Shown here: in pieces, positions 3,914-35,424 of the stretch
How positions within the stretch are numbered: position 1 is the first letter of the stretch
Layout: each line of letters starts with the position of its first letter
IMG/VR virus record: IMGVR_UViG_3300014039_000010
Coordinates: 1 to 35,424 of that record
Origin: a virus
Direction: 5' to 3' (one strand)
Length of the DNA stretch: 35,424 nucleotides
Position numbers and translations under genes: made by a program
The notes under the pieces: generated by a model
Told to the model about the DNA's origin: nothing
Database searches by the model: none
What the model saw: the letters and a program-made list of their open reading frames with translations, nothing else

Positions 3914-3965
3914 TACGTTAAAACCGTAAAAAGTTGTTGACATTACGCTAATAACGTAGTAATAT
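3914..3965 (+). promoter_or_regulatory. Second early promoter with two operator copies
   Basis: Operators at 3914-3928 (TACGTTaaaACCGTA) and 3944-3958 (TACGCTaatAACGTA). -35 TTGACA 3937-3942, 17-nt spacer, -10 TAATAT 3960-3965. Geometry is the same as at 2539-2567. Confidence 0.6.
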
Positions 3966-5038: not shown

Positions 5039-5209
5039 ATGACGAACATGTGCGTATTTAGCAGAAGAAAAGGCATGAACGGTTGTTCAGCACTTACACG
5101 TAAGCAGTGCGAATTTGCGGGTGCAGACGAGTGCGAGTGTAGTTTTTTCAAAGATAAAGAGGACTACAAGTTGACAGTAGAAGGATATATCGAAAGAAAG
5201 GAGGATTGA
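5039..5209 (+). CDS. Small Cys-rich hypothetical protein (56 aa)
   Basis: ATG 5039 follows the RBS GGGGGTGAG. Below the track cutoff. Confidence 0.4.
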   Translation: MTNMCVFSRRKGMNGCSALTRKQCEFAGADECECSFFKDKEDYKLTVEGYIERKED

Positions 5210-5211
5210 TT

Positions 5212-5847
5212 ATGGGATTGCCAGTATTGATTGAGGGTGAGAGCGGAAGCGGAAAGACGTACAGTATCAAAGGTCTTGACGTCGACAAAGTAGGAGTTTT
5301 TGCAGTAGAAAAGGCGTTGTTGCCGTTTAGAAACAAGGGATTCAAAGTCGCAAAAAACGCTACATATCAGATGATCATGCAGGCGTTAAAGAATCCGCAG
5401 TTGAAGTGCTACGTAATCGACGACAGTCAGTATTTGATGGTGAATGAGTTTTTCGACCGTGCAAAAGATACCGGGTATCAGAAGTATACGGACATTGGCT
5501 TGCACTTTAGAAACCTTATTCACCATATCAACCAGAACATACCGGATGACGTGATTGTGTACTTCCTGCATCATACAGAGCTTGACAGTAACACAGGCAA
5601 GACAAAGGCAAAGACAGTCGGCAAGATGCTTGATAACTACTTGACGTTGGAAGGCTGCTTTAATATCGTGTTGCAGGCGGTAGCAGAGGGTAAAGATCAC
5701 TACTTTATCACGCAGAGTGACGGAAGCAACACGGCAAAGAGCCCGGAAGAGATGTTTGCCGCTAAGATTGCAAATGACTTAGCGTATGTAGACAAGACGA
5801 TTCGTGAGTATTACGGATTCGAGAGCAAAGAAAGCGAGGATAAATAA
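5212..5847 (+). CDS. Sak4-like AAA/RecA-type ATPase (single-strand annealing / recombination)
   Basis: Walker A GESGSGKT near the N terminus, Walker B-like CYVIDD, about 210 aa, and the Gp157 to ATPase to SSB-like gene order. Confidence 0.7.
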   Translation: MGLPVLIEGESGSGKTYSIKGLDVDKVGVFAVEKALLPFRNKGFKVAKNATYQMIMQALKNPQLKCYVIDDSQYLMVNEFFDRAKDTGYQKYTDIGLHFRNLIHHINQNIPDDVIVYFLHHTELDSNTGKTKAKTVGKMLDNYLTLEGCFNIVLQAVAEGKDHYFITQSDGSNTAKSPEEMFAAKIANDLAYVDKTIREYYGFESKESEDK

Positions 5848-6024: not shown

Positions 6025-6128
6025 TGCAGTAATTATAACGATATGCGTATGCGTAACGTTGGTTTTAATCACGGCGATTTCAAACAAAAAAAATAACAAC
6101 AAAAACAAAGAAAGTGAGGATAAATAAT

Positions 6129-6704
6129 ATGATGAATTTCAGCAAACCACAGGGATATGACGAGGTACAGGCAGGTAAAGAGTTCACACCGATTGAGTTA
6201 GGCGGTCACAAGTTGATTATCAAGGCACTTGAGGAATGTAAGGCAAGCAACGGCAACACGTATTTGAAGGTAAGCTTCGATACGGCATCGGACGACAAGC
6301 AGCCGAACTACTACGCCGACGCATGGAAGAATGACACAAGAGATCAGAAGAAATGGGGCGGCGTTGCAATGGTCTTTCCGACCGATAAGAACGGCAAGAC
6401 AAGCAAGACATTTAAGCAGTTCTGCACGAGTATTGAGAGAAGCAATAACTCGCAGATTCAGTGGGGCGCAGGCTTTGAGGCTTCAATCGTAGGTAAGAAA
6501 ATCGGCGGTATCTTTGGTGAAGAGGAATACATGAACAGCAACGGCGATATCAAGGTTGCACACAAGCTTTTCTGGTGGGGGAGCGTTGATAACATGGACG
6601 ATGCAAGAATCCCTGCAAAGAGAGAGCTTGACAAGGATAGCGTAGGCAATGCTGGATTCGTTGATGTATCGAGCATGAGCGTTGATGATCTTCCATTCAA
6701 ATAG
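6129..6704 (+). CDS. Non-canonical ssDNA-binding-like protein with an SSB-type acidic tip (possibly DUF669-like)
   Basis: The C terminus ...SVDDLPFK resembles the bacterial SSB tail D-D-D-(I/L)-P-F. It sits next to the Sak4-like ATPase. No canonical SSB N terminus is visible. Confidence 0.5.
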   Translation: MMNFSKPQGYDEVQAGKEFTPIELGGHKLIIKALEECKASNGNTYLKVSFDTASDDKQPNYYADAWKNDTRDQKKWGGVAMVFPTDKNGKTSKTFKQFCTSIERSNNSQIQWGAGFEASIVGKKIGGIFGEEEYMNSNGDIKVAHKLFWWGSVDNMDDARIPAKRELDKDSVGNAGFVDVSSMSVDDLPFK

Positions 6705-6714: not shown

Positions 6715-7470
6715 ATGAGTATATTTGACGAGGTTAAAAGTCAATTAAATATACAGACTGTAATTGAGCATTATGGGTTCAAAGTGAATAGGGCGCATCA
6801 ATTTGTGTGCCCTTTTCACAACGACCATAAACCGAGTGCATCAATCAAGAATGATTACTTTAATTGCTTCGTATGCGGTACAGGTGGCGATCTTATAACC
6901 TTTACGGCAAAGTATTTAGGTTTAAGTAACATTGAAGCGTGCAAAGAGCTTGTGCAAGTGTTTGGGTTGAATATCGACATAAGCACGACGGAAGAACGCA
7001 AGGCGCAGTACGTAGCAGAAAAGAAAAGAAGAGCAGAGGTAAGCAAGCAGTCAAGCTTGCGTGATAAATTCGCAAAAGACAAGGAAATCAGAGCAGAGCG
7101 CAAAGCCTTTACAGATTACAGGCTTAGAAACGAGGTAAGGCAGGCGCACAGGAAGAAAGAGGAAGAACAGGAAAAAGAGATACAGCGTGTAGGCTTCGTA
7201 TTAGCCGATTTTCACCGCTTTTTATGGCAAAGCATACATTTATACCCTTTTGAAGATAAAATGCATATATGGGCGTTACAGGAGCTTACAACGTGTGAAT
7301 ACTTTTTAGATTGTTACGACGAGAACCCGGCAGAGTTTTGCAAGCATAATATGGGGGTGGTAAGAAGATATGAACAGGAACTATCAAGATTTAGCAAATG
7401 CAGTAGTGACACAGGCGGCGAGAGATTACAAGCATTATCACAGGAGAATAGAGAAGAATCCGGCGGATGA
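6715..7470 (+). CDS. CHC2 (DnaG-type) zinc-finger protein with no visible TOPRIM domain
   Basis: CPFHNDHKPSASI...FNCFVCGTGGDLITF is the primase CHC2 zinc-finger signature. The rest is a Lys/Glu-rich linker plus an uncharacterised C-terminal part. Confidence 0.75.
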   Translation: MSIFDEVKSQLNIQTVIEHYGFKVNRAHQFVCPFHNDHKPSASIKNDYFNCFVCGTGGDLITFTAKYLGLSNIEACKELVQVFGLNIDISTTEERKAQYVAEKKRRAEVSKQSSLRDKFAKDKEIRAERKAFTDYRLRNEVRQAHRKKEEEQEKEIQRVGFVLADFHRFLWQSIHLYPFEDKMHIWALQELTTCEYFLDCYDENPAEFCKHNMGVVRRYEQELSRFSKCSSDTGGERLQALSQENREESGG

Positions 7471-7606
7471 TTATGCGAGGCATGAAGTACGAGAGCTTGA
7501 AGCCTTTTTCAGTAGTAAATGGATGAAGAGGCTTATCAATATAGATGGCACGGAGATATTGGCAAGGATAAAAGGAGAGTTAGAGCATGAAAGAGAACTT
7601 GATTGA
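7370..7606 (+). CDS. Hypothetical small protein (78 aa), overlapping the tail of the CHC2 ORF by 101 nt
   Basis: RBS GGGGGTGGTAAGAAG precedes ATG 7370. The protein looks globular (ANAVVTQAARDY...ELEAFFSSKWMKRL). Confidence 0.55.
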   Translation: MNRNYQDLANAVVTQAARDYKHYHRRIEKNPADDYARHEVRELEAFFSSKWMKRLINIDGTEILARIKGELEHERELD

Positions 7607-9461
7607 GGCGATAAACAGTGAGGACGATTTTCAAGACGATCTTTTTTTTACGATTGTAGAGACGACAGACGTACTAGAAAAGGCGCAGTTTATCGAAGCG
7701 GTGCGCAGGAAGTGCCAGAAAGTAGGACGATTGCGCGAATTTAATAATTTATTAAAAGCATGGATCCTTAAATCTACGCAGTTGCAGAAGCAGGGCAGCA
7801 GCAATAAGACAGCCTTTACAGATGCACCACTTACGCTTAACTGTGGCAAGTGGATTGCAAACGATCTGGGCGTAATTATGACGGATATTACGGCGCAAGG
7901 TGTACCGGTCACGACAAGTGCCTGCCCGCATCCGATACTGCCGGTTGAGCGATACATAAACATTGACACGGACACGGAGAAAGTAAAGCTTGCATTCTTT
8001 AAGGATGGCAGATGGCGAGAGATTACGGTTGATGCAGGTACGGTTATGAATAAGAACAGTATTGTCCAGCTTGCGGATCGTGGCGTGCTTGTGACAAGCG
8101 AGAGTGCAAAAGAACTTGTGCGATATCTGAGCGATACGATCGCATTAAATGCACAGGAGATACCGCTTTATCGCAGTATAGGACGTTTGGGTTGGATAGA
8201 TGGCGACTTTATCCCGTACAACGATGCAGTCAAGTACGATGGCGATTTAGACTTCAAGAGCATATACGATAACGTGAGAAGTGCCGGTCGTCTGGACGTT
8301 TGGTACGATCACGTAAGAGAACTTCGCAAAGATATAAATATCCGCTTAGTGCTTGCAGCATCTTTCGCAAGTCCGCTGATTGAGGTATTAGGGGCATTGC
8401 CGTTTATCCTGCATCTGTGGGGTACTACCGGATTTGGTAAGACTGTATCGCTGATGGTTGCATCGAGCGTATGGGGCAATCCAGAGATGGGATGCTTAAC
8501 AAGGACTATGAACATGACAGCAAACGCGATGGCAAGGACAGCTTGCTTTTTGTACAACGTGCCATTTTGCGCGGATGAATTGCAGCAGATCAAGCAGAAT
8601 TGGGGTAATTACGACCAGCTAGTCATGTACTTAACAGAAGGTATCGACCGAGGACGTGCAAAGGCAAGGGGCGGCGTCGAGCAGACAAAGACGTGGCGTA
8701 ATTCGTTTATATTCACAGGAGAAGAGCCGATCACGAAAGGAGCATCCGGGGGCGGCGTTAAGAACAGGGTTATCGAGATTGAGTGTGAGAATAAGATCAT
8801 CAAAGATGGTAATATGACCGCGAACCTTGTCAAGGCGAACTACGGACACGCGGGAAAGCTTTTTATTCAGTATTTGAGTCATTTAATTGAGACAGACAAA
8901 CAAAGTATCGTTGACGACTATAAAAAGCTGTTTAAGGGCATTTTAGAAGCCACAGACACGACGGATAAGCAGGCACTATCAATGGCTTTGATGCTACTTG
9001 CAGACAAGATCGCTTGTGAGTGTATCTTTGATGATGAGCCGCTGACGATCGACGATGTAAAGCCGTACTTAGTGAGTGAGAGTGCCGTGCGTGTTGAGGA
9101 CAGAGCATATGATGAGCTTGTGTCTCTTATCGGTCGAAACGTCAATAAATTCAGTGAGTTCTCGACAGATGCATGGGGAAGATTGTCCGATGACGTGGCA
9201 ACGATCAATAAGCAGGTGCTGGAGCAGGAGTTGCAGAAGCTGGGCTTTGATTTTGGAAGTGTAAAAAAAGGCTGGGATAAAAAAGGCTACATCATAAAAA
9301 ACAGTGCGGGCAGATATGTACACCAAACACGAGTAAATGGCGTTAGAGGTAATTATATCAAGATCAAGTTGCCAGATGGTATGAACTTTGAGGAAGTTAC
9401 GGACGAAAAAGATATACCATTCGTGCAGTATGAGCAACAAAGTCTTGCGTTTAGTAAATAG
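7587..9461 (+). CDS. SF3-type replicative helicase / replication initiator (DUF927 or VirE-like P-loop NTPase)
   Basis: 624 aa. Walker A GTTGFGKT, followed by VASSVWGNP, and Walker B CADELQ. It lies downstream of the CHC2 protein and directly upstream of the iteron region. Confidence 0.7.
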   Translation: MKENLIEAINSEDDFQDDLFFTIVETTDVLEKAQFIEAVRRKCQKVGRLREFNNLLKAWILKSTQLQKQGSSNKTAFTDAPLTLNCGKWIANDLGVIMTDITAQGVPVTTSACPHPILPVERYINIDTDTEKVKLAFFKDGRWREITVDAGTVMNKNSIVQLADRGVLVTSESAKELVRYLSDTIALNAQEIPLYRSIGRLGWIDGDFIPYNDAVKYDGDLDFKSIYDNVRSAGRLDVWYDHVRELRKDINIRLVLAASFASPLIEVLGALPFILHLWGTTGFGKTVSLMVASSVWGNPEMGCLTRTMNMTANAMARTACFLYNVPFCADELQQIKQNWGNYDQLVMYLTEGIDRGRAKARGGVEQTKTWRNSFIFTGEEPITKGASGGGVKNRVIEIECENKIIKDGNMTANLVKANYGHAGKLFIQYLSHLIETDKQSIVDDYKKLFKGILEATDTTDKQALSMALMLLADKIACECIFDDEPLTIDDVKPYLVSESAVRVEDRAYDELVSLIGRNVNKFSEFSTDAWGRLSDDVATINKQVLEQELQKLGFDFGSVKKGWDKKGYIIKNSAGRYVHQTRVNGVRGNYIKIKLPDGMNFEEVTDEKDIPFVQYEQQSLAFSK

Positions 9462-9462
9462 C

Positions 9463-9730
9463 GTAAGTCAAAATGTAAGACATTAGAAACCTAGTATTTA
9501 TGCGGCTTTAGAGTATATATTTATATAATGTCTTACATTTTTACATGACTTACATATATTATATATATTTTATAGAAAAAATTCTTAAAGCTTATCTTTT
9601 AAGCTAATATAAAATATTTTTTATATATGTGCAGAAAAAATGTAAGAATGTAAGACCATTAGTATTTATGCGGGTTTACGAGGATTTTTATGTAAGACAA
9701 AATGTAAAAGTCTTACATAGAATGTAAGAA
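9463..9730. repeat. Putative replication origin: about 10 copies of the 8-9-mer ATGTAAG(A/T)C in both orientations around an AT-rich core
   Basis: Forward copies at about 9473, 9640, 9648, 9690 and 9722. Inverted copies at about 9530, 9547 and 9710. TAGTATTTATGCGG at 9492-9505 and 9660-9673. The AT-rich stretch is 9556-9635. There is no ORF. Confidence 0.6.
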
Positions 9731-9741
9731 GGGAGAGCGAA

Positions 9742-9873
9742 ATGGACGAAGAAAGAAGCGTATGCGACGATTGCGAGCGTGGCGATACATGGGAATGCCA
9801 ATTCTGCTGTGACAAGTGTTACGAGAACTACGGAGAGTGTCCGAACTCAGATTGTGATCCGTGGGATATTTAA
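9742..9873 (+). CDS. Small Cys-rich protein (43 aa)
   Basis: ATG 9742 follows the RBS AAGGGAGAG. It has 8 Cys, including CDDC and CQFCCDKC. Confidence 0.45.
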   Translation: MDEERSVCDDCERGDTWECQFCCDKCYENYGECPNSDCDPWDI

Positions 9874-9890
9874 GAAGGGAGAGAAGAACC

Positions 9891-10118: not shown

Positions 10119-10532
10119 ATGAACAACAAAAAGTTAGGTAACGATTTTGAGCAGGAACTTTGCGAGATATTGGCAGATCATGGATTCTGGGCGCATAACT
10201 TCGCGAACAGAAAGAACGGACAGCCGGCGGATATTATCGCAGTACAGGGGCGTGTGGCATGGTTGATTGATGCAAAGGAGTGTACCGGTGATGTATTCGC
10301 ACTTAGCAGGATTGAATTTAATCAGAGCGCATCAATGGAGCTTTGGCAGGAGTGCGGTAATACAAGTCCATATTTCGCGCTTAAAACGTCAAAGAATGAG
10401 ATATATATGCTTGCATATGATATCTTGCGAGACTTGGCAAAGGACGGAAAGAAGCAATTAAACGACGTAGAAATGCGATACTATGGCACAGACATTGATA
10501 CATGGTTTAGGATTGTGAAAAGCAGCTTATAA
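10119..10532 (+). CDS. Hjc-like PD-(D/E)XK Holliday-junction resolvase
   Basis: 137 aa. G..FE.EL..IL...GF...........PADIIAV......LIDAKE matches the archaeal Hjc-type nuclease core (E...D...E/D-x-K). Confidence 0.65.
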   Translation: MNNKKLGNDFEQELCEILADHGFWAHNFANRKNGQPADIIAVQGRVAWLIDAKECTGDVFALSRIEFNQSASMELWQECGNTSPYFALKTSKNEIYMLAYDILRDLAKDGKKQLNDVEMRYYGTDIDTWFRIVKSSL

Positions 10533-10555: not shown

Positions 10556-10771
10556 ATGAATAATTTATCTGATATTTTTTGTGAGTTCAAAGAAAAGGTT
10601 AATGATTTTGTCGATGGAGTAAGACAGTTTTCGTATAAGCAAGGCTATCGTAACGGAATTGTCGCTTTGTATGACAAACTGTACAAAGTGACGAAAGATG
10701 AAGAAGAGAGGCAAGTTATAACGCAAGCTGTACAGTCGTTGATGGAGGATATAGATAAATGGAGCTTATAA
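10556..10771 (+). CDS. Hypothetical protein (71 aa)
   Basis: ATG 10556 follows the RBS GGGAGG. Track ORF trimmed to this start. Confidence 0.5.
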   Translation: MNNLSDIFCEFKEKVNDFVDGVRQFSYKQGYRNGIVALYDKLYKVTKDEEERQVITQAVQSLMEDIDKWSL

Positions 10772-12144
10772 TCAGTAATGAGATCACGATAAAGGATCCT
10801 ACGCCAGAGGTTAGAGAGTGGGTATATACCCGCTTAAAAGTGGCAAATCCAGAGTATAGCAAAAAGGTAAGGCTTGGCTTATGGGTGGGAAAGACACCGA
10901 AAGACATTGCGCTTTATCGCAACAGCGGTGGCGATCTTATCATCCCGCATGGAGTAAAGGACAGCTTGCTTTATGCATTCCCAGAATTAAATGTCAATGG
11001 TTCTTTTGAGCATCCAGTATTATTTAATTATGCGTCAAATAAGCCAGTAAATTACAACGCAAGTATAAATCTATACGATTATCAGAAAGATGCATTAAAT
11101 AGCCTTGTACGCAGTCGTGGGGGCATATTACAGAGCAAGGCGGGAAGCGGTAAGACGAGAGTAGGTATTGCGCTTGCTTGTGCGCTTGGTAAAAAGACGT
11201 TGTGGCTCACACATACGAACGAGCTTTTGAATCAGTCGTATAATGCGGCAGCAGAATTTATCGACAAGAAGCTGCTTGGAAAGATCACGGCGGGCAAGAT
11301 GCAGATATCAGAGGGCATCACGTTTGCAACCGTGCAGACGTTAAGCAAGGCGGATTTGTTTGCACTTCGTAATGTCTGGGATGTCGTGATCGTGGACGAG
11401 TGCCACAGGTGCGCCGGTACAGTCAATCAAGCAACGATGTTCAGCAAGGTGCTGAATAATCTTGCGGCACCTTATAAATACGGTTTGTCTGCTACGCTTC
11501 ACAGGGCCGATGGACTTATACCTTGCACCTTTGCACTTCTGGGCGGCGTAGCGCATAGCGTGCCAGATAGTGCAGTACATACGATGCAAGTAAAGATTGA
11601 GCGAAAAGATACAGGCGTTAAGATCAGCAGAGCTTGTCTTGATACGGACGGAACGCTTGTATATGCAAAACTTATCAACTACCTTGCAGGACATTATGAA
11701 AGAAATTGCAAAATAGCGGGAGACATTGACTGCCTTGTCTATCAAAAACATAGTATTATACTTTTATCTGATAGAGTAGAGCACTTGAGCACGGTATATG
11801 ATCTTATATATCACAAAGAAGATGCTGTCATCCTACATGGCAAGGTTAAAAAAGCGGACAGGGAACAGGCGTTGGAGCAGATGCGCAACAAGGAAAAGCG
11901 CATATTGCTTGCAACGTATCAGCTTGCAAAAGAGGGGCTTGACGTGCCTTGTCTTGACAGGTTGCTACTTGCTACACCAGTCAAAGACTATGCGATTGTA
12001 GTGCAATCGGTAGGACGTATCGCCAGAGTGTGCGAGGGCAAGGGCGAGCCAGTAGTGTATGACTATGTGGACGACATAGGATTTTTGCAAGGCATGTGGA
12101 AAAAACGCTGTACTTCTTACAGAAAAGACGGCTGCATACTGTAA
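10759..12144 (+). CDS. SF2 DEAD/DEAH-box DNA helicase
   Basis: Motif I AGSGKT, motif II VIVDECHR (DExH), and C-terminal helicase motifs (LLATYQLAKEGLDVP, VQSVGRIAR). Confidence 0.85.
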   Translation: MELIISNEITIKDPTPEVREWVYTRLKVANPEYSKKVRLGLWVGKTPKDIALYRNSGGDLIIPHGVKDSLLYAFPELNVNGSFEHPVLFNYASNKPVNYNASINLYDYQKDALNSLVRSRGGILQSKAGSGKTRVGIALACALGKKTLWLTHTNELLNQSYNAAAEFIDKKLLGKITAGKMQISEGITFATVQTLSKADLFALRNVWDVVIVDECHRCAGTVNQATMFSKVLNNLAAPYKYGLSATLHRADGLIPCTFALLGGVAHSVPDSAVHTMQVKIERKDTGVKISRACLDTDGTLVYAKLINYLAGHYERNCKIAGDIDCLVYQKHSIILLSDRVEHLSTVYDLIYHKEDAVILHGKVKKADREQALEQMRNKEKRILLATYQLAKEGLDVPCLDRLLLATPVKDYAIVVQSVGRIARVCEGKGEPVVYDYVDDIGFLQGMWKKRCTSYRKDGCIL

Positions 12145-12190: not shown

Positions 12191-12243
12191 TACGCTAAAA
12201 ACGTAATAAAATACTTGCAATTACGTTGTGAACGTAGTATAGT
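12191..12243 (+). promoter_or_regulatory. Third early promoter with two operator copies
   Basis: Operators at 12191-12205 (TACGCTaaaAACGTA) and 12222-12236 (TACGTTgtgAACGTA). -35 TTGCAA 12215-12220, 17-nt spacer, -10 TATAGT 12238-12243. Confidence 0.6.
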
Positions 12244-13814: not shown

Positions 13815-14750
13815 ATGCAGAAATTTGGTATTGATATTTCAAAATGGCAAAAGGGTTTTGATTTTGACAAGGCAAAGGCAGAGGGCGTGGAGTTCATTAT
13901 CTTGCGTGGCGCATATTCAAATAGCAAGGATTCTTGCTTCGAGGATTTTTATAAGTCATGCAAGGACAGGGGGATCCCAATCGGTGTCTATCATTACTCA
14001 ATGGCGAAGTCTGTTATGGATGCAAAGAAAGAAGCAGAGCTTATGCTTGATGTCTTAAAGGGCAAGCAGCTCGAGTATCCAATTTACTTAGACGTAGAGG
14101 ATGAGACACAGGCGAAATTAGGAAAGTCGGTACTTACGGCTATCATTAAGACATACTGTGACACGCTGGAAGATGCAGGTTATTATGCAGGCATTTATAG
14201 TACGTACAGTTATCTTAACAGCTACACGAATATTGCGGAGCTGTGCAAGTATGATAAGTGGATAGCGCAGTGGCACACAAAGTGCAGTTGTCCGATTGAC
14301 TATGGCATGTGGCAGTTTGGGGGCGAGACAAACAAGATCCGCTCAAACAAGATTGCGGGCGTTACTTGTGACCAGGATTACGCATACTTCGATTATCCGT
14401 CTATTATGCGTAAATCCGGTTTAAACGGCTTTTCTAAGTCCGAGGGTACAAATACACCACCTGTACAGGAAAAACCTCTTAAATCGGCTTTGGACGTTGC
14501 TAGAGAGATATTGGATGGCAAGTGGGGGAACGGTGCAGACAGAAAAGCAAGGCTTACTGCTGCCGGATACAACTATGACGAGGTACAGGCGAAGGTCAAC
14601 GAGCTTTGCAAACCACAAAAGACAGTAGATCAGCTTGCACGTGAAGTTATCGCGGGGCAGTGGGGTACAGGCTTGAATCGCAAGAACAGACTTACACAGG
14701 CGGGGTACGATTATGCCGCAGTACAAAAGAGAGTAAATGAGTTATTGTAG
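13815..14750 (+). CDS. Endolysin: GH25 muramidase with two C-terminal CW_7 (Cpl-7-type) cell-wall-binding repeats
   Basis: N terminus FGIDISKWQ...FIILRGAY...DVE matches GH25. The two repeats are GKWGNGADRKARLTAAGYNYDEVQAKVNEL and GQWGTGLNRKNRLTQAGYDYAAVQKRVNEL. Confidence 0.9.
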   Translation: MQKFGIDISKWQKGFDFDKAKAEGVEFIILRGAYSNSKDSCFEDFYKSCKDRGIPIGVYHYSMAKSVMDAKKEAELMLDVLKGKQLEYPIYLDVEDETQAKLGKSVLTAIIKTYCDTLEDAGYYAGIYSTYSYLNSYTNIAELCKYDKWIAQWHTKCSCPIDYGMWQFGGETNKIRSNKIAGVTCDQDYAYFDYPSIMRKSGLNGFSKSEGTNTPPVQEKPLKSALDVAREILDGKWGNGADRKARLTAAGYNYDEVQAKVNELCKPQKTVDQLAREVIAGQWGTGLNRKNRLTQAGYDYAAVQKRVNELL

Positions 14751-19381: not shown

Positions 19382-19588
19382 ATGATTAAGAATTTCATCG
19401 ACGATATGATACCGGAGTTTGGGTATGATTATGTGATCGGACATTGCCTTTGCAGTGAGTACGACTTGCGTAACAAGGCAAATCGTGAAGAGGACGAGGG
19501 CAAGAAGCGCAGATACTTAAAAACGGCGCAGATGTACAAGAAGAAAGCCGAAGCATTGACAAGGGAGAGGATTGACAATGGCTTATGA
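19382..19588 (+). CDS. Hypothetical small protein (68 aa)
   Basis: ATG 19382 lies 8 nt after GAGGA. The track GTG start at 19367 is within the RBS. Confidence 0.5.
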   Translation: MIKNFIDDMIPEFGYDYVIGHCLCSEYDLRNKANREEDEGKKRRYLKTAQMYKKKAEALTRERIDNGL

Positions 19589-21611
19589 TATCACGGAAGC
19601 TTTCGAGGATATCGAGCTTGCGCTAATTAAATCTATGCGTGCGAATATGCAAAGGCATATCGACGACGAGTACGACGAGGGCATGAACTGGACGCAGTGG
19701 CAGGCAGAGATGCTTGCCGGGTTATCGCAGTATCGAGCCGAGAATCAAGACGTGCTTAAAGGGTACATGGGCAAAATGAACAGCGAGCTTGCCGGGGCAA
19801 TCCGTGATGCATATGCCACAGGAGAAAGTGAGCTTGAAATCGAGCTTTTGAAGCAGATACAAAAGGGATATACGCCGCCTAAAGACGGAAAGAAGGTTAA
19901 TATGCAAGGTGCTTTTTTTCGTAACAATCAGAGAAAGCTCAATGCGCTTGTCAAGGCTACGACAAGCGATATGAAAAAGGCGGAAACAGCACTTTTGCGT
20001 ATGAATGACGACATATATAGGCAGACTATATTTAAGGCGCAGATGTTCTATAATACCGGTGCAGGCAGTATGTGGCAATGCGTAGATATGGCAACGAAGG
20101 ACTTCCTTGCAGCAGGGTATAATTGCGTACAGTACAAGAACGGCGCAAGGGTGAATATCGCAAGTTATAGCGAAATGGCGTTAAGGACTGCAAACAAGCG
20201 TGCAAATTTGATGGGACAGGCAAACTTCCGCGAGAAACACGGTATGCATCTTGTCAAAGTCAATGCACGTGGTACGGCGTGTCCCTTGTGTCTGCCGTAT
20301 CTTGGGAAAGTGTATGTTGACGATGTGTACGGCGGCGGCACTGCTGAGGAAAGCAAGTCAAGCGGATATCCGTTGCTTAGTATTGCAGTAAAGGGCGGGC
20401 TTTTTCATCCAAACTGTAAAGACGCTTGCAGTACGTACTACGAGGGCATCAATCAACCGCCCAAAGAGGTCACGGACGAACAGGCAAAAGAGATCAACCG
20501 CCGATACAATCTGGAGCAAACGCAAAGATACTACGAGCGCAATTACAGAAAGAATGTCAGACTTGCTAATGGCAGCTTGACAGAGGAAAACGTCAAGAAG
20601 TATTCAGCACGTGCAAGCGCATACAAAAAGAAGTTGACTGATCTGTGTGATGCAAACAGTGACGTGCTTCGACTTGACAAGCAGAGGCTTTCGCTACATG
20701 GCGTTTTAAGCGTTGATAATAAGGGTAGGCTTAGTGTTACACCTAAAGCGAATAAAAATGCAACCACGGGCATTATACGCGATTACAACGGTACATTAGC
20801 AACGAAGCTGGGTAAAGATCACTATGATAATATATGCGACAAGGTAGATAAGTGCAAGGACAAGGATCTTGTTGCGTTGTGGCAAGCGCACGCAGATCAT
20901 ATCGGAGTTGGAAGCACTACAAAAAAAGGTGCATATGCTATGAGTGGTAGTATATACTTAGATATTGAGAGGGTAGCAAAAGGCGGCATGATTGAAAAGC
21001 CATATCAGACAGCATTCCATGAGTGCGGACACGTCATTGACGGAAGAGCGAGAAGAAATCTGCAAACGCAAGGAGTTTTTGCAAGCCATTTTTCTGGCGC
21101 ATATAAAGACGGACTATTCCCGCAAACGATCAAAGACGAAGTGCAAGAGTGGGTTATGCGTTATGACAAGGAGTTGAAACAAGCGTTCAAAGATCATGCA
21201 GGCGATGTTGAATGGTTCAGACAGAACGGACATATAGGCGAATGGAGTTACGACAGGTATAAAAACGGATATGCGACGGCAAGCGAAGTAATACCAAAGT
21301 ATCGTAAATCTATGGCATATAATGCAGTCGCAAAAGAATTGAGAAGCTATGATGCAATAGCGGTTGCTGATTTGTGCGATATCGTAGAGGGTGCAACAAA
21401 CGCAAAGATAAGCGTAGTTGCAGGACACGGCGCGAAGTACTGGAAAGATAGGACTGTCGGCGGCATTGCAGATGGACTTGCAACAGAGGCATTTGCGGAG
21501 ATCACGGACAGTACGTTTGCGAATGAAGAAAGTCTGGACTTAATTAAAAAGTATCTGCCTAAGAGCTACGATGTTTACAAGGAAATGGTAAGGGAGATGT
21601 TAAAGCAATGA
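19578..21611 (+). CDS. Head-morphogenesis protein (MuF / SPP1 gp7 family) fused to a C-terminal HEXXH metallopeptidase-like domain
   Basis: ATG 19578 follows the RBS AAGGGAGAGG. The MuF core includes ...TACPLCLPYLGKVY...GGLFHPNCKD. After a coiled linker comes a roughly 280-aa C-terminal domain carrying FHECGH (nt 21018-21032). Confidence 0.8.
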   Translation: MAYDITEAFEDIELALIKSMRANMQRHIDDEYDEGMNWTQWQAEMLAGLSQYRAENQDVLKGYMGKMNSELAGAIRDAYATGESELEIELLKQIQKGYTPPKDGKKVNMQGAFFRNNQRKLNALVKATTSDMKKAETALLRMNDDIYRQTIFKAQMFYNTGAGSMWQCVDMATKDFLAAGYNCVQYKNGARVNIASYSEMALRTANKRANLMGQANFREKHGMHLVKVNARGTACPLCLPYLGKVYVDDVYGGGTAEESKSSGYPLLSIAVKGGLFHPNCKDACSTYYEGINQPPKEVTDEQAKEINRRYNLEQTQRYYERNYRKNVRLANGSLTEENVKKYSARASAYKKKLTDLCDANSDVLRLDKQRLSLHGVLSVDNKGRLSVTPKANKNATTGIIRDYNGTLATKLGKDHYDNICDKVDKCKDKDLVALWQAHADHIGVGSTTKKGAYAMSGSIYLDIERVAKGGMIEKPYQTAFHECGHVIDGRARRNLQTQGVFASHFSGAYKDGLFPQTIKDEVQEWVMRYDKELKQAFKDHAGDVEWFRQNGHIGEWSYDRYKNGYATASEVIPKYRKSMAYNAVAKELRSYDAIAVADLCDIVEGATNAKISVVAGHGAKYWKDRTVGGIADGLATEAFAEITDSTFANEESLDLIKKYLPKSYDVYKEMVREMLKQ

Positions 21612-21763
21612 ATGAACTATTAAAAAAGTATGAGGATGCATTTAATGAGTGTTTCCCGCTTATGCTTATGAGAGGCATGAGCGAAGAGGACGTAAAGGTT
21701 GCTATTGAAAAATGCTTGAAAAATGGCAAGCCTTATGAGGTAGATGCAGAAGGTGATTATTAA
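21608..21763 (+). CDS. Small protein (51 aa) translationally coupled to the MuF fusion; candidate cognate immunity or inhibitor protein
   Basis: ATGA start/stop overlap at 21608-21611. Below the track cutoff. A strong terminator follows. Confidence 0.45.
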   Translation: MNELLKKYEDAFNECFPLMLMRGMSEEDVKVAIEKCLKNGKPYEVDAEGDY

Positions 21764-21767: not shown

Positions 21768-21871
21768 AAAAAAGAGCAGGCGGGAGGTATCGCTTGCTCT
21801 TTTTCGTAAGAGGAGAATTAAATCATGTCACTTCTAATCACTTACAAGAAGGGAAAGGTTAATAAGAAGAT
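21768..21871 (-). ncRNA. Candidate minus-strand small RNA of about 100 nt
   Basis: Minus-strand -35 TTGACA (reverse complement of 21901-21906), exact 17-nt spacer, -10 TAAAAT (reverse complement of 21878-21883). The transcript would end at the bidirectional terminator. It holds no meaningful ORF. Confidence 0.3.
21773..21804. terminator. Bidirectional rho-independent terminator
   Basis: 10-bp stem, AGAGCAGGCG 21773-21782 with CGCTTGCTCT 21791-21800 (one G-U pair). A-run upstream and T-run downstream. Confidence 0.75.
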
Positions 21872-21937
21872 ACTTTTATTTTACATCTTTGTTAAAAAAA
21901 TGTCAATGTGGCTTACGTGATTACATCGAAAAAGTCC

Positions 21938-22212
21938 ATGTAAACCAAAATGTAAGTCAAAGAAACGTAGTATTTATGCGGTGTTCATACATTTGTCTTG
22001 CAATCTTCCATAATTTTTTCAATTACAAAAAAATATTAGTAAATATATAAAAAATAAAAGAGCTGATATAAAAATCGCTATATGAATATATAAATATAAA
22101 AATTATGTATTTATGTATATATATGTAATAAAAAGGCTTATAAACCCTTATAAATACTACATTCTTGGTGTCTTACATTTTGACTTACATTTGACTTACG
22201 TTTTACATTTTC
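21938..22212. repeat. Second iteron and AT-rich region, related to the 9463-9730 origin
   Basis: A direct copy of the origin unit lies at 21938-21981 and an inverted copy at 22145-22188, flanking an AT-rich core of about 160 bp. Further GACTTAC(A/G)T iterons lie at 22181-22210. Confidence 0.6.
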
Positions 22213-22217
22213 CAGTA

Positions 22218-22245
22218 TTGATTTTTGAAAAATGTATGTTATAAT
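22218..22245 (+). promoter_or_regulatory. Sigma-70-type promoter with an extended -10, for the tandem-HTH gene
   Basis: -35 TTGATT 22218-22223, 16-nt spacer, TGT-TATAAT 22237-22245. Confidence 0.6.
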
Positions 22246-22275
22246 GAGCAAAAACATACAAAACGGAGGATTAAC

Positions 22276-22746: not shown

Positions 22747-22775
22747 TTGACATGACGGTATAAACATAATATAAT
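22747..22775 (+). promoter_or_regulatory. Consensus promoter (TTGACA-17-TATAAT) for the scaffold and capsid operon, with the late box in its spacer
   Basis: -35 at 22747-22752 and -10 at 22770-22775. GACGGTataAACATA at 22754-22768 occupies the same position as the early operators. Confidence 0.6.
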
Positions 22776-22820: not shown

Positions 22821-23438
22821 ATGGCAGATATAAATAATACTGCTACACAGCAGGACAACGGCACGCAGGCACAGGGCGGTAACAGTGCAAATAACACACA
22901 GACACAGACACAGACAGCTGGAGTTGATTATGACAAGATACAGGCTATGATCGACAAAGGTACTACGCAGAAAGAAAACGCAATCCTTAAATCGTACTTT
23001 GAACAGCAGGGTATGAGCGAGGATGATGTTAAATCTGCAATCGGTGATTGGAAATCACGTAAGCAGACACAGGCACAGGAGCAGACAGACAACTTTAATA
23101 AGTTGCAGGAAAGCAACAAGGCTTTGCAGGAACGACTTACACAGGAGCTTCTTAATAAGCAGGCGTTCAACGATTGCTTGGACTTAGGAATTGACAAGAA
23201 CACAATCCCGCACGTGATTAAGTGCGCAGACTTCACAGATGCGATCAACGAAAAGGGAGAGGTCAATGCAGAGAAGGTAAGAGCAAGCGTAGAGCAGGTA
23301 CTTAAAGATGTACCGGCTTTCAAGAGTTCCGCAAGCGAGAAGCAGGGCTTTAAGGTTGGAATCAGCGGAGAGCAGGACGACGCAACCGAACAGGAAAACG
23401 TCTTGCGTAAGGCTTTCGGTCTTGCACCTAAAAAGTAG
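22821..23438 (+). CDS. Scaffolding protein
   Basis: 205 aa with a Q/T-rich N terminus and a coiled-coil body. Directly upstream of the major capsid gene. Confidence 0.75.
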   Translation: MADINNTATQQDNGTQAQGGNSANNTQTQTQTAGVDYDKIQAMIDKGTTQKENAILKSYFEQQGMSEDDVKSAIGDWKSRKQTQAQEQTDNFNKLQESNKALQERLTQELLNKQAFNDCLDLGIDKNTIPHVIKCADFTDAINEKGEVNAEKVRASVEQVLKDVPAFKSSASEKQGFKVGISGEQDDATEQENVLRKAFGLAPKK

Positions 23439-27362: not shown

Positions 27363-30032
27363 ATGGCACAGACAGTAGGTGCGGTTGCACTTGATATAGT
27401 TATGGGTAAGAATAACGTGAGTAGCGCTGTCAAAGGTGCTGTGAACGAGGCGCAGAATGCCGCGAGTTCTGGAAGCTCAAAGATTAAGAGCGCATTAAGC
27501 GGGATTGGCACGGCGGCAAAGACAGTCGGCAAGGTTGCGGTTGCAGGACTTGGTGTTGCGGCGGCAGGCATTACCGCAGTCGGTAAGACTGCAATAGATG
27601 AGTATGCGAACTACGAACAGTTGGTCGGTGGTGTTGACACGCTTTTCAAGAGCAGTAGCCAGAAGGTGCAGCAGTACGCGGCAAACGCATATCAAACGGC
27701 TGGTATGTCCGCAAATACGTATATGGAGACAGTAACGAGCTTTTCTGCATCACTGTTGCAGTCGCTTGGCGGAGACACAGAAAAGGCGGCAGAACAGGCG
27801 AACAAAGCCGTTGTAGATATGTCCGATAATGCAAACAAGATGGGTACAAATATCGAGGATATCCAGCACGCATACCAAGGCTTTGCGAAGCAGAACTACA
27901 CTATGCTTGACAACCTTAAACTCGGATATGGCGGTACGAAAGAGGAAATGGAGCGACTTCTTGCGGATGCTGAGAAGATATCCGGCATTAAGTACGATAT
28001 ATCAAGTTATAGTGATATTGTAGATGCAATTCATGTAGTACAGGATGAAATGGGTATCACGGGCACGACAGCAAAGGAAGCAAGCACAACTATTGAGGGT
28101 TCTATCAACTCCATGAAAGGTGCATGGTCTAACCTTATGACAGGTTTGGTCGACAGTAATCAGAATATGACGACCTTAACGACCAACTTCGCAAACAGTC
28201 TCTTTACTGTTGCAGATAACATTGTGCCGCGTATTACGCAGGTGTTATCCGGAATAGCAAGTGCGATAGATCAGCTTGCACCGAAAATGACAGAGAAGAT
28301 ACCGGGCATCTTAAATCAGTTATTGCCGGCACTTGTCAGCGGTGCGACTTCCCTCGTCAATTCGCTTGTTACAGTGCTTCCGGGTATCCTTGGCGCGCTG
28401 ACAGGCATCTTGCCGCAGTTGATTGAGGGCGTGGCTACGATTATACAGGGTATATGCAATGCACTGCCGCAGTTGGTGCAGGCGATAGTCGATGCGCTAC
28501 CTTCAATTATACCGGCACTTGTGTCCGGCCTTATCAATGTTGCAGTTAGTCTTATGACGATGCTTCCGCAGATTATCCAGCCGATTATTACGGCATTGCC
28601 GACGATTATCAGTTCGCTTGTGCAAGCATTGATCGCGAATCTTCCGCTATTGATTGCCGGGGCAATTCAGCTTGTTATTGGACTTGTAGCGGCACTCCCA
28701 GAAATCATAGCGGCACTTATAAATGCTATGCCTATGATTGTACAGGGTATCGCAGACGGAATTGTGCAAGCGGGGCATATCTTGACAGAAAAAGCGGGTG
28801 CAATCTTTGAACCTTTGAAGGGCATAGTGCAGGGTGCATGGACGGCAATTAAGACAATTATTGAGGGCGTGCTTACGGCAATCGTTGCAGTAGTTGGCGG
28901 AATATGGATGGCAATTCAGACGGTGATTACAACCGCAATGAATATTATAAAGACAATTATTGAGACTGTATGGAATGTCATAAAGACGGTTATTACGACA
29001 ATTATTACGGCAATTCAAACAGTCATAACGACTGTCTGGAACATTATTAAGACAGTAGTAACGACAGTTGTAACAGCGATTCAGACAGTTATTACGACAG
29101 TATTTAATACAATCAAGACTGTTATAACTACAATCATAAATGCAATAAAGACAGTTATCACAACCGCTTGGAATGCGATTAAGACGGCAGTGACAACAGT
29201 TGTGAATGCAATCAAGACTGTTATTGAGACAGTTTGGAACGCAATAAAGACAGTAGTAACAACGGTCGTGGGCGGTATTAAGAATGCAGTAAGTACAGCT
29301 TGGAACGGCATTAAAACTGCAACGTCTACGATCTTTGGCGGTGTAAAGAGTGCAGCAAGCACAGCCTGGAACGGCATTAAGTCAACGGTATCCACGCTTG
29401 CAAATGGCGCAAAGAGCGCAGCATCTAAGGCGTGGGAAGGTATCAAGTCGAGCATTCAGAACAACAGTGGCGGGATTCAGAACGCGGTATCAAATTGCTT
29501 CAATGGCGCAAAAGATAAGATTTCAAGCTTTGCATCGCAGGCGGTAAGCTGGGGTGCAGATTTCGCGAACGGACTTGCAGATGGTATCAAGGGTGCAGCA
29601 GGCAAGGTTGTTGACGCGGCAAAGAGCTTGGGAAACAAGATTAAAGAGTTCCTGCACTTCTCACGACCAGACAAAGGACCACTTCGTGATTACGAGACTT
29701 GGATGCCGGACTTTGTGCAGGGAATGGCAAACGGAATCGACCAGAACAAGTACAGGTTAATAAATTCTGTACAGAAAATGGCAAATCAGATGGTTATGCC
29801 TGCTATACAGGCACCTGCATTGAAGAACGTCGGAGCAGGCACAGGCTATACTTCAAACCCTAGTACAAGTACGAGTGATGACAGACTGTACGGCTTGCTT
29901 ACTCAGCTTGTAGCCGGTATCAATCGCATGGGCGATATTACAGTGCCGGTATACCTTGGAAACGACTTGATCGACGAACAAATCATAAAAGCGAACGATC
30001 GTAGAACGCTTAGAAGTGGAGGCAGGGCATAA
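27363..30032 (+). CDS. Tape measure protein
   Basis: 889 aa, the longest gene. It has hydrophobic LP-rich and repeat segments and sits after the chaperones. Confidence 0.9.
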   Translation: MAQTVGAVALDIVMGKNNVSSAVKGAVNEAQNAASSGSSKIKSALSGIGTAAKTVGKVAVAGLGVAAAGITAVGKTAIDEYANYEQLVGGVDTLFKSSSQKVQQYAANAYQTAGMSANTYMETVTSFSASLLQSLGGDTEKAAEQANKAVVDMSDNANKMGTNIEDIQHAYQGFAKQNYTMLDNLKLGYGGTKEEMERLLADAEKISGIKYDISSYSDIVDAIHVVQDEMGITGTTAKEASTTIEGSINSMKGAWSNLMTGLVDSNQNMTTLTTNFANSLFTVADNIVPRITQVLSGIASAIDQLAPKMTEKIPGILNQLLPALVSGATSLVNSLVTVLPGILGALTGILPQLIEGVATIIQGICNALPQLVQAIVDALPSIIPALVSGLINVAVSLMTMLPQIIQPIITALPTIISSLVQALIANLPLLIAGAIQLVIGLVAALPEIIAALINAMPMIVQGIADGIVQAGHILTEKAGAIFEPLKGIVQGAWTAIKTIIEGVLTAIVAVVGGIWMAIQTVITTAMNIIKTIIETVWNVIKTVITTIITAIQTVITTVWNIIKTVVTTVVTAIQTVITTVFNTIKTVITTIINAIKTVITTAWNAIKTAVTTVVNAIKTVIETVWNAIKTVVTTVVGGIKNAVSTAWNGIKTATSTIFGGVKSAASTAWNGIKSTVSTLANGAKSAASKAWEGIKSSIQNNSGGIQNAVSNCFNGAKDKISSFASQAVSWGADFANGLADGIKGAAGKVVDAAKSLGNKIKEFLHFSRPDKGPLRDYETWMPDFVQGMANGIDQNKYRLINSVQKMANQMVMPAIQAPALKNVGAGTGYTSNPSTSTSDDRLYGLLTQLVAGINRMGDITVPVYLGNDLIDEQIIKANDRRTLRSGGRA
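28836..29462 (+). repeat. Intragenic tandem array inside the tape measure gene: 19 units of 33 nt (11 aa, consensus xW/xNAIKTVITT)
   Basis: The protein segments exactly into 19 consecutive 11-mers, from AWTAIKTIIEG to AWEGIKSSIQN. Trp falls on alternate units, giving a 22-aa super-period. Confidence 0.85.
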
Positions 30033-33954: not shown

Positions 33955-35424
33955 ATGAGCTTAAAAGGTAGTGCTACTATCGAATTGACAAATGCAGACG
34001 GTAGCAAAGAGATTATTAAGCATGACAATCTTGTCACAAATGCGGTGAATGACTTGTGCATGTCTCAGCGTGGCGAGATGGCAACAATATTGAAAATTGT
34101 CAATAACGGAGACAGCTATGCACAGGCACTTTTTGGCGGTCTGTTACTTTTCGATGAAGAGCTTGACGACGACGCGAATAGTTACTTTTTGCCGACGGTT
34201 AAATGTACCGGGTATGCATCACAGGACGCATATGCAGGACTTGATACGTGTAGAGGTTCGTTTAATGCGTCCGAGGGCGGCGTACAGGATGACGGAAGCT
34301 ATAAGTTTGTATGGGATTTTGCAACATCGCAGGCAAATGGCACGATCAAGTCGCTTGCACTTGTGCCAAACATGATGGGGCAGATTGGGCTTACGTCAAG
34401 CAAGGTTAGTGGTGAAGCTAAGACTATGTATATGAAGCGAACAAATACTGAACCGTTTGATAGCAGAGGATATATGCTTCCGGATGGCACGGTTGATGGT
34501 TTCCAGGCAAATGGACTATATATTGTTGCTGTGGTTGACGATATCGCATATGCTGCATCCGCGGATAACATTGGATATCGAGGATCCGGTGCAAGTTCTA
34601 GCTTATGCATCACGAACAACGGCGGAATATTAAAGCTTTTGCGATTTAAGCTTGGCGCAAGTAGTATCGCACTTACGGATAAAGTGTGTCGTGCGAGCTA
34701 TATTGATACAGTTGACGTCCAACTTCCAACAGATTTTATGAGTACGATTACTTATCAGAATTATCAAAATTTAATTGCGTTAAATTACGACAAAGATAAC
34801 AACAAAATTATCGTTTTTCCATGTGCAAGAGTAAGCAATTTGCCCGCAAATTCGACACTTAAATATTGTGAGATTGATCTAAGTAATAACTACGCTGTTG
34901 CTGTTTACACTTTTACAAATAACACAGGTGGTAGTATCCCAAGCAGTGGAAAGACTGGTATCAATTCATGTGAGTATAAATTTTTCGTCATGAAAGACTA
35001 TATTCTTGTGACTTCTAAATCATCGTCTAATGAGTACAAGATGTATTCTGTGAAGCGAAGCGATAATACGCAGATCAAAGAGATACAGGACATGAACGGG
35101 GCGGCGTTGCAACTTGGTTTAGATATTGGATTTTGTCCTGTTTTTTGGAAAAACAATATCATAGTAATCAAATACAGGTTAAGTGCTAATTACAGGTATC
35201 TTGTGATTGATCTTGCAACAGGAAAGATGAAAGACACTAACACGGCGATAATGTCGGATTTTAACAACATCGACATCGGACATGAATCCGTATTCGCTAT
35301 GACAGGACAGAACTTGACATATAGTATGAGCTTTAATCCTTTTGTGCTTTGTACAAAGAATAATCTCGATAGCCCAGTCACGAAAACAGCAAGTCAGACG
35401 ATGAAGATCACGTATACGCTGTCC
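33955..35424 (+). CDS. Distal tail / receptor-binding-module protein. It runs off the window end and continues at 1..135, for 508 aa in total.
   Basis: ATG 33955 lies 1 nt after the previous stop. I translated 490 codons by hand without a stop. It is absent from the track because it has no in-window stop. Confidence 0.7.
   Translation, partial: MSLKGSATIELTNADGSKEIIKHDNLVTNAVNDLCMSQRGEMATILKIVNNGDSYAQALFGGLLLFDEELDDDANSYFLPTVKCTGYASQDAYAGLDTCRGSFNASEGGVQDDGSYKFVWDFATSQANGTIKSLALVPNMMGQIGLTSSKVSGEAKTMYMKRTNTEPFDSRGYMLPDGTVDGFQANGLYIVAVVDDIAYAASADNIGYRGSGASSSLCITNNGGILKLLRFKLGASSIALTDKVCRASYIDTVDVQLPTDFMSTITYQNYQNLIALNYDKDNNKIIVFPCARVSNLPANSTLKYCEIDLSNNYAVAVYTFTNNTGGSIPSSGKTGINSCEYKFFVMKDYILVTSKSSSNEYKMYSVKRSDNTQIKEIQDMNGAALQLGLDIGFCPVFWKNNIIVIKYRLSANYRYLVIDLATGKMKDTNTAIMSDFNNIDIGHESVFAMTGQNLTYSMSFNPFVLCTKNNLDSPVTKTASQTMKITYTLS
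35347..35424. repeat. 78-bp terminal overlap identical to 1-78 (circular closure of the contig)
   Basis: Base-by-base identity with the first 78 nt. The ORF phase is preserved across the junction. Confidence 0.9.

Follow-up and report, generated by a model that had tools for sequence, protein, structure and literature searches.

Among the phages returned by our literature searches, SPP1 is the only one described with a second origin among its head genes, far from the first. Its oriL lies inside gene 38, and its oriR is organised alike, combining repeats with an AT-rich unwinding element; G38P binds either site with nanomolar affinity, ~12-13 kb separate the two, and the favoured model casts oriR as a fork barrier for the switch from theta to sigma replication (SPP1 literature). 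Its sequence record bears this out: 48 nt of gene 38 have a match at 4901-4948, between genes 7 and 8 and about 12.9 kb away by its coordinates; a terminator hairpin comes after the minor head protein gene 7, whose end is at 4728, and the scaffold gene 11 lies further downstream. Here we describe a comparable arrangement in a 35,424-nt stretch of viral DNA, IMG/VR virus record IMGVR_UViG_3300014039_000010, positions 1 to 35,424 (hereafter the window), in which a non-coding region between the genes for a MuF-like minor capsid protein and the scaffold (region B, ~21893-22215) reuses the units of a predicted primary origin (region A) that follows the gene for the initiator helicase Rep. We put at roughly 60% the reading that B functions as an origin-like element on which Rep loads, making it a conserved second copy of the Rep-dependent origin ("oriR-like"). 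The broader claim, that B descends from the origin and is under selection to bind Rep, is highly probable, and the narrower one, that B actually fires as an origin, falls a little short of an even bet. An earlier note on this DNA had held that a second origin-like element would not be expected in the late region of a siphovirus; that premise is wrong because SPP1 has oriR between gene 7 and scaffold gene 11, in the same slot of the gene order.

The initiator and the primary origin resemble a different set of described systems. Origins of the staphylococcal pathogenicity island (SaPI) type, as established by experiment, comprise 6-12 short iterons just downstream of rep with an AT-rich centre, at least two iterons per side running in opposite directions and recognised by the Rep C-terminal domain, and two Rep hexamers are proposed to load, one per side (PMC9371898; PMC7581432). 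Melting of origin DNA by such a Rep needs no ATP (PMC9371898). SCCmec is similar, its helicase binding iterons downstream of its own gene through the C-terminal domain (PMC7581432). The corresponding part of the window reads as follows.

6715-7470, plus strand: pri, a primase-like gene that precedes rep, matching the Pfam Zn_ribbon_DnaG CHC2 finger (E=2.7e-16) and several PHROG DNA primase families, the zinc-finger part alone being recognisable as primase
7587-9461, plus strand: rep, encoding Rep (624 aa), a SaPI-Rep/Cch-type self-loading initiator helicase by its DUF927, HTH_56, phrog_8841 and PDB matches
9462-9742, no strand assigned: region A, putative primary origin, with iterons, boxes and an AT-rich core directly 3' of rep

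Rep belongs with the DUF927 or SF3-MCM-like hexameric helicases of the SaPI Rep/Cch kind (DUF927, E=9.8e-37; phrog_8841, E=2.6e-173; PDB 8TCH "Pathogenicity island protein", E=3.6e-29; SCCmec Cch 5DGK, E=5.4e-14), and its residues 503-597 match HTH_56 "Cch HTH" (E=9.6e-14), the C-terminal winged-helix/helix-turn-helix (HTH) domain for origin recognition that is typical of the family. A primase gene stands next to rep, as in SaPI/SCCmec replicons. Region A begins 1 nt past the rep stop codon and holds eight iterons, ATGTAAGWC with at most one mismatch, starting at 9473+, 9530-, 9547-, 9640+, 9648+, 9690+, 9710- and 9722+, together with two copies of a further unit, the box TAGTATTTATGCGG (9492-9505 and 9660-9673), and an AT-rich core at about 9506-9655 with a GC content of 0.167. 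Iterons 3' of rep, their occurrence in both orientations and the AT-rich centre follow the SaPI-type origin grammar, and the layout and spacing are repeated in the relatives L127, L004, L130 and L001. By its fit to the family definition, region A would be the origin of a SaPI/SCCmec-type pri-rep-ori replicon.

The position of the iterons is general among the phage Rep homologs that could be retrieved. Eight Rep lineages each carry a GC-containing repeated motif of their own, placed no more than about 300 bp 3' of rep:

ATGTAAG: Rep relatives at 77-83% identity
GTAAGTT: L005 (Rep 63% identity)
GGTAACC: Anaerostipes phage AC844P1
GTAACAA: R. gnavus phage phiRg507T2_3
GTAACAA: Roseburia phage Jekyll
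GTCCCAC: L151 and L155
CCCCACA: L132

The Rep DNA-binding domain is 79-83% identical among relatives with the same iteron, against 56% in L005, which has a different one. The origin architecture that the earlier note had read after the helicase gene is borne out both by the make-up of Rep (DUF927 plus a Cch-type HTH; 8TCH, 5DGK) and by the presence of iterons at this position in all eight lineages. Among cultured phages, blastn of region B found no close relative and tblastn of Rep gave matches of at most 36% identity. The likeness to the SaPIs thus spans the Rep family (PDB 8TCH), the primase upstream, the origin just downstream of rep, short iterons in opposite orientations on both sides of an AT-rich centre and the C-terminal winged-helix/HTH recognition domain, and that to SCCmec the DUF927 and "Cch HTH" parts of Rep with the 5DGK match. 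The differences are that SaPIs are satellites whereas the window is a complete phage; that they are described with one origin, no distant second copy being reported in the SaPI literature examined; that their iterons measure 5-6 nt against 7-9 nt here; and that an extra box stands here beside the innermost iteron. SCCmec is a chromosomal cassette with a single putative origin, and its sequence similarity is distant.

Region B lies 12.5 kb from A, in the midst of the head genes, and the features of its surroundings are given below in order.

19572-21611: MuF-like minor capsid protein
21608-21763: 51-aa open reading frame (ORF) overlapping the end of the MuF gene; no Pfam match
21779-21798, plus strand: terminator-like hairpin closing the MuF operon, with an A-run and a T-run on its flanks
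21878-21906, minus strand: leftward promoter-like site TTGACA-17-TAAAAT (11/12) abutting the left edge of B; like-placed sites in L012, L011, L013 and L007
21938-21981, plus strand: left arm of B, with a degenerate iteron at 21938, an exact iteron at 21950-21958 and a box at 21968-21981
21982-22144, no strand assigned: AT-rich core of B, 163 bp, a putative DNA-unwinding element containing the lowest-GC 150 bp of the genome
22145-22208, minus strand: right arm of B, inverted, with a box at 22146-22159 (TAGTATTTATAAGG), exact iterons at 22170 and 22182 and 1-mismatch iterons at 22193 and 22200
22218-22245, plus strand: rightward promoter-like site TTGATT-16-TG-TATAAT for the HTH gene; equivalents in L011 and L007
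22276-22740, plus strand: tandem Xre-type HTH protein (type T1); Pfam HTH_3 in two stretches, E=6.5e-18
22747-22775, plus strand: consensus sigma-70-type promoter TTGACA-17-TATAAT before the scaffold gene
22821-23438: scaffold; phrog_2303 match

B obeys the same origin grammar as A, with iterons at 21938 and 21950 pointing forward and those at 22170, 22182, 22193 and 22200 pointing in reverse, toward one another across the core. The two most AT-rich 150-bp intervals of the genome (overall GC 0.428) are the B core at 0.14 (at 22010) and the A core at 0.167; the next stands at 0.24. Inverted arms around a core of about 160 bp had been proposed for this site, and the measured core is 163 bp (21982-22144); iterons had also been said to run up to the -35 of the HTH gene, and the degenerate copies at 22193 and 22200 indeed end 9 nt before it. 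The span first assigned to the element, 21938-22212, is too narrow, since the conserved flanking promoter-like sites extend it from about 21878 to 22245. These sites are divergent, one at each edge, and the minus-strand site abuts the leftmost iteron in 5/5 lineages checked. Hairpins with T-runs equivalent to that at 21779-21798 were found in relatives by eye.

Two small-gene observations belong to this neighbourhood. ORFs of 51 aa occupy the matching position in two relatives (L007, 8693-8848; L012, 8844-8999). After the MuF-operon terminator, each clade member also has a strong Shine-Dalgarno sequence and a short, non-conserved ORF of 4-31 aa (window, 21813-21921; L012, ~9113-9143; L013, ~9146-9220; L011, ~8572-8660; L007, ~8972-9022), which enters the left edge of B antisense to the conserved leftward promoter-like site and is possibly a leader peptide or a small antisense RNA.

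To what extent does B share sequence with A beyond what two AT-rich regions would share by chance? Aligned to 9463-9505, the left arm 21938-21981 has 14 identical bases at TAGTATTTATGCGG, and the reverse complement of 22145-22188 matches the same unit in identical blocks of 20 nt (GTAAGTCAAAATGTAAGACA) and 10 nt (TAGTATTTAT) around a 9-nt variable spacer, exactly as the earlier note had quoted them from these coordinates. No inverted repeat in the whole window is longer than the one pairing 9463-9510 with 22141-22188 (48 nt, 81%). ATGTAAGWC occurs nine times, six in A, three in B and nowhere else, where 0.61 are expected and 0/100 shuffles reach nine; within B alone, ATGTAAG occurs three times against 0.1 expected, a count that 0/1000 dinucleotide shuffles reach. 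The box TAGTATTTATGCGG is exact at 9492, 9660 and 21968, with an inverted 2-mismatch copy at 22146, all within A or B. The best local alignment of A with B scores 26.5, where shuffles of B score 12.5 +/- 1.6 (maximum 18.5; z=9) and the best score of A against any other 512-bp interval of the genome is 16.5. The shared blocks are thus significant against a shuffled background, and the proposal that B reuses origin units stands. Over all loci, 535 pairs of AT-rich segments were compared, and sharing at the A-B level appeared only in the A-B pairs of this clade and in one unrelated pair. That pair is 5041-5570 and 7091-8240 of L125, a prophage on an Eubacteriales metagenome-assembled genome (MAG), sharing 149 nt at a score of 24.5.

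Conservation was followed across the clade that shares the ATGTAAG iteron. Clade genomes were retrieved with scaffold and TerL queries and a metagenome scan (the HTH and MuF proteins as IMG/VR queries returned no usable relatives), and ten were sampled across the MuF-scaffold slot: the window, 114144, 108303, 9667_000026, L008, L009, L010, L011, L129/L090 and L233. The B iteron cluster is present in all ten, and in each B surveyed 0/1000 shuffles reach the observed iteron count. Clade proteins have diverged to 69-88% identity while the iterons of B stay exact. The gene order is constant, running from MuF through the 51-aa ORF, a hairpin with T-run, B, a promoter-like site and an Xre-type HTH gene to the scaffold, the HTH gene being absent in L011. 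The minimum GC of the B core is 0.11-0.17 across clade members, and the distance between A and B is 10.9-13.4 kb.

The copies differ in completeness. In L011 and L012, B is a full-length copy of the origin with 11 iterons each and the entire origin layout, including the spacing "< 8-9 > 2-3 > 48 <" that is otherwise found in A of all genomes, its 48-nt gap separating the last forward from the first inverted iteron. In the window, 114144 and the 9667-type genomes, B consists of inward-pointing arms around a longer core. The description of B as a partial duplicate accordingly holds for this genome and fails for L011 and L012. B also differs in orientation: that of the window (21929-22215) aligns better to other B regions as its reverse complement (score 88 vs 26 against 114144), and comparison with L127, L012, L130, L008, L011 and L129 places the inversion in the window and L233, the remaining copies being co-oriented with one another and with A. 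Recombination between the inverted arms is the likely cause. As B is inverted in this lineage and yet retained, its function appears to be independent of orientation. Over 21893-22275, the same-species contig L233 is identical at 381 of 383 positions (99.5%), where the genes on either side reach 91-94% and the neighbouring spacer 93%; its core differs from that of the window by a single 1-nt indel. This identity favours constraint, short of proof. Beyond what the earlier note had described, B is thus conserved in its clade, inverted here, bracketed by divergent promoter-like sites and regularly accompanied by an HTH gene whose type tracks the box.

How closely does this arrangement match that of SPP1? 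Both phages have two distant regions with common initiator-binding repeats and an AT-rich unwinding element, about 12-13 kb apart and with terS and terL in between, and in both the second copy interrupts the head genes after the portal and minor head protein and before the scaffold, with a terminator and a promoter at its two sides. The slot reads gene 7, terminator, oriR, genes 8-10 (accessory or moron genes) and gene 11 in SPP1, and MuF, small ORF, terminator, B, promoter, HTH gene and scaffold in the window. Annealase, SSB and a Holliday-junction resolvase are encoded by both. The differences lie chiefly in the initiator. SPP1 uses the DnaD-like G38P, the loader G39P and the DnaB-type helicase G40P, whereas the window has a single self-loading DUF927/Cch-type helicase, and among its scanned proteins no DnaD-like or DnaB-like gene, and so no G38P homolog, was seen. 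oriL lies within the initiator gene, whereas A lies 3' of rep. SPP1 is virulent, whereas this phage has a serine integrase and a repressor; and the accessory genes of SPP1, as far as annotated, do not encode HTH proteins. BLASTP of the head proteins of the window against those of SPP1 gave nothing below E=0.04. Because the head proteins lack detectable similarity, the shared arrangement is convergent or very ancient; judged by its genome, the phage would work like SPP1 and is not a member of its group by descent. What is new here, as far as the sequences tell, is an SPP1-like dual-origin arrangement built on a SaPI-type self-loading initiator and conserved in a clade of Lachnospiraceae phages; the arrangement itself has precedent.

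If B is indeed a Rep-loading element, a plausible course of events can be outlined. The winged-helix/HTH C-terminal domain of Rep would bind the iterons of B as it would those of A, Rep hexamers would form on the two arms and open the AT-rich core, and the divergent edge promoter-like sites could aid this opening via negative supercoiling. Initiation would follow at B, making it a second origin about 12.5 kb from A. Rep-occupied B may also stall forks arriving from A, as proposed for SPP1 oriR, and four gene products of the window could turn the theta mode of stalled forks into concatemer-forming replication:

4554-5027: Gam-like protein
5206-5847: Sak4 annealase
6114-6704: SSB-like protein
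10119-10532: Holliday-junction resolvase

Several points weigh against this reading. First, B was found in one clade only, and seven more distant Rep lineages are without it. Second, B is the simpler of the two regions in some genomes (the window, 114144 and those of the 9667 type), where 3-6 iterons are recognisable in it and 7-10 in A. Third, several other 200-bp intervals are likewise 98-100% identical to L233, and the identity of B could stem from recent mosaic exchange rather than from selection. Fourth, the binding of Rep to the iterons is itself predicted by analogy with related systems. Finally, even in SPP1 it is not established that oriR fires in vivo, and a barrier is the model preferred there.

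Could B then bind Rep without firing, as a roadblock that stalls the forks from A and triggers the theta-to-concatemer switch? This is the published model for SPP1 oriR, and the slot and the distance between the copies are as in SPP1 (12.5 kb vs 12-13 kb); the recombination genes listed above are present, and B of this genome has fewer iterons than A. A roadblock, however, needs binding sites only, and yet all clade members keep an extreme AT-rich core between inward-pointing arms, which simple binding does not require, and the core is invariant in the close relative. Moreover, since SaPI-type Reps melt such DNA without ATP (PMC9371898), a bound site of this grammar would be expected to open. 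On these grounds a true Rep-loading site is favoured over a pure barrier or titration array, and the roadblock as the whole explanation seems unlikely, even though it is compatible with Rep loading and the two roles are not exclusive.

The HTH gene that follows B raises a further idea, namely that B and this gene together form an origin-control cassette, in which the HTH protein would bind the boxes at both origins and gate Rep-mediated melting. The protein could in this way shut off origin firing late in infection or in the lysogen, and the specificities of box and protein would co-evolve. An HTH_3 gene follows B in 8/9 surveyed clade genomes (the window, 114144, 108303, 9667_000026, L008-L010 and L129, with L011 as the exception), and also in L233. 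The proteins are of two types, tandem (T1) in the window and 114144, with 49% mutual identity, and single (T2) in 108303, 9667 and L008-L010, which are 79-100% identical. The box itself, 13-16 nt between the innermost iteron and the AT-rich core, varies between genomes and is oriented either way relative to the iterons (examples are 9492-9505, 9660-9673, 21968-21981 and 22146-22159 in the window, and those of the relatives L002, L004, L012, L013 and L007); in every genome both box cores are restricted to A and B. The type of box in B tracks the type of protein, the tandem one going with the asymmetric TAGTATTTATRMGG and the single one with the quasi-palindromic CCTWG-N6-CWAGG, and the A boxes of the window match its own HTH type, unlike the A boxes of all other clade members. 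L011, without the HTH gene, has neither box core. On the other side, 114144 has T2 boxes in A but a T1 gene, and the correlation within B could be simple linkage. We regard the cassette as a tentative idea with the odds well against it.

Alternatively, B may serve transcriptional control, with Rep or the HTH protein or both acting at iterons and boxes to regulate the divergent edge promoters; these would drive the HTH gene and the downstream scaffold and capsid genes, so that late expression would be coupled to replication. The promoter-like sites are conserved at both edges in five lineages, 9 nt separate the degenerate iterons from the -35 of the HTH promoter, and the HTH gene is a regular companion, as just described. 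Against this, the scaffold gene is provided with a consensus promoter of its own after the HTH gene, a full B persists in L011 although the HTH gene is missing there, and the iterons occur at no other promoter; an operator array would also need neither an AT-rich core of 160-250 bp nor the spacing grammar of an origin. Transcriptional control as the main role of B is correspondingly improbable.

Extra initiator-binding repeats beyond a primary origin are familiar from other replicons. In iteron plasmids and P1 (incA), iteron arrays outside the primary origin can tune initiation through titration or pairing, and titration also underlies the "Per" resistance that cloned lactococcal phage origins provide. 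With the same iterons as A, B could by analogy be a locus of titration, handcuffing or incompatibility that sequesters Rep or pairs with A, limiting initiation or excluding related superinfecting phages. To our knowledge, however, control arrays of the plasmid or P1 incA type lack an unwinding element, whereas B has inverted arms around the most AT-rich core of the genome and has its place in a late structural operon, in a phage that integrates. A site present in one copy in a prophage would be a poor titrator, and no data point specifically toward this role, which we consider very improbable. Least probable of all is that B is a functionless relic of duplication or illegitimate recombination in a permissive accessory-gene slot, which would suit the variable MuF-scaffold interval, the lack of B outside one clade and its degeneracy in some members, but not the intact iterons in 10/10 genomes whose proteins are at 69-88% identity, the 99.5% identity of B beside flanks at 91-94%, or the likewise conserved AT-rich core and edge promoters.

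Two further candidates were set aside. As to a pac site, terS and terL lie about 5 kb upstream and nothing connects B to them; as to an embedded-satellite remnant, B and the HTH gene amount to about 1 kb with no integrase or rep of their own.

Outside the clade, the slot itself is found to be variable. Over 107 loci the MuF-scaffold interval measures 250-2600 bp, and an extreme AT-rich segment is found there in the ATGTAAG clade only. In L005 and Jekyll, the DNA from the MuF operon to the scaffold consists of a terminator and a promoter only, and in the TerL-63% clade the gap is about 70 bp and holds the terminator. Examination of the available sequence of AC844P1, phiRg507T2_3, Jekyll, L005, L151, L155 and L132 revealed no second late-region iteron cluster. 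With MuF and scaffold separated in distant phages by a terminator and promoter or by small genes, the suspicion that this is an insertion is confirmed: B, as read from these comparisons, appears to be a maintained insertion into a variable slot, derived and specific to the clade.

The search for further carriers gave several leads that did not hold. L055 and L051 have a long, fairly AT-rich MuF-scaffold gap with accessory genes and no iterons. A second GTAACAA/AGTAACA cluster in Jekyll (L089, 39994-40106) is weak, lies in the early/lysogeny region, is largely coding and is probably no copy of the origin. A motif-agnostic screen for two clusters of a 7-mer proved too noisy, its best lead being CCGACAA with two sites in the TerL-63% clade, the second "cluster" of which is a coding repeat in the scaffold N-terminus. 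Scans of IMG/VR and metagenomes with 20-mers of the iterons added only examples of region A and one same-species genome, most of the metagenome matches being unrelated singletons.

As for the genome as a whole, its first 78 nt are a perfect direct repeat of its last (1-78 = 35347-35424). Because these bases are equal, the window is taken to be a circular assembly of a genome of 35,346 bp. It is temperate and siphovirus-like, encoding a serine integrase and a repressor-like HTH protein, and it is a phage of human-gut Lachnospiraceae: its relatives come from gut metagenomes, and L090 lies on a MAG labelled Lachnospiraceae bacterium. Genes for terS, terL, the portal and the major capsid protein were also recognised. 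The remaining features are these:

624-1964, minus strand: serine integrase (protein family scan)
1957-2427, minus strand: repressor-like HTH protein (protein family scan)
9743-9874: Cys-rich 43-aa ORF with several CxxC-like pairs, directly after region A; no Pfam match
10759-12144: SF2 helicase
13815-14750: endolysin (GH25 and CW_7 repeats)

The endolysin gene stands upstream of terS instead of after the tail genes, and the tape-measure gene (889 aa) contains at least eight tandem repeats of 33 nt (11 codons) at 28905-29263. An early-type promoter-operator is present in three copies (repeat family D6; 2521-2564, 3919-3962 and 12197-12240), each with TTGCAA or TTGACA, a 17-nt spacer with AACGTA/TTACG half-sites and then TATTAT, TAATAT or TATAGT; the phage repressor or Cro probably binds there. 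The B units share "AACGTAGTAT" with D6 and were considered as ordinary sigma-70 promoters on that account, a candidate that was rejected: with its proper 17-nt spacing, D6 is an early promoter-operator in its own right, and its overlap with the origin box is a coincidence. Scanned in full against Rfam with gathering cutoffs, the window had 0 matches to known RNA families. The cumulative GC skew rises monotonically along the direction of transcription, and the origins are not locatable from it.

Finally, the comparison with SPP1 bears on how tailed phages organise their replication. Two unrelated lineages with unrelated initiators may have converged on the MuF-scaffold slot as the place of a second origin, with about 12-13 kb between it and the first. 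If true, this convergence would imply a general mechanistic advantage of the geometry; that the same slot and distance go with a different initiator suggests that the arrangement is selected for function and is not an oddity of SPP1. As the role of SPP1 oriR is still a model, a second and simpler system, with one initiator and short exact iterons, lets the origin and barrier roles be separated. The finding would further extend SaPI/SCCmec-type Rep-ori replicons to complete phages across several Firmicutes hosts, in which at least seven iteron specificities can be told apart here, and the defined pair of Rep and ori could seed replicative vectors for the poorly tractable Lachnospiraceae.

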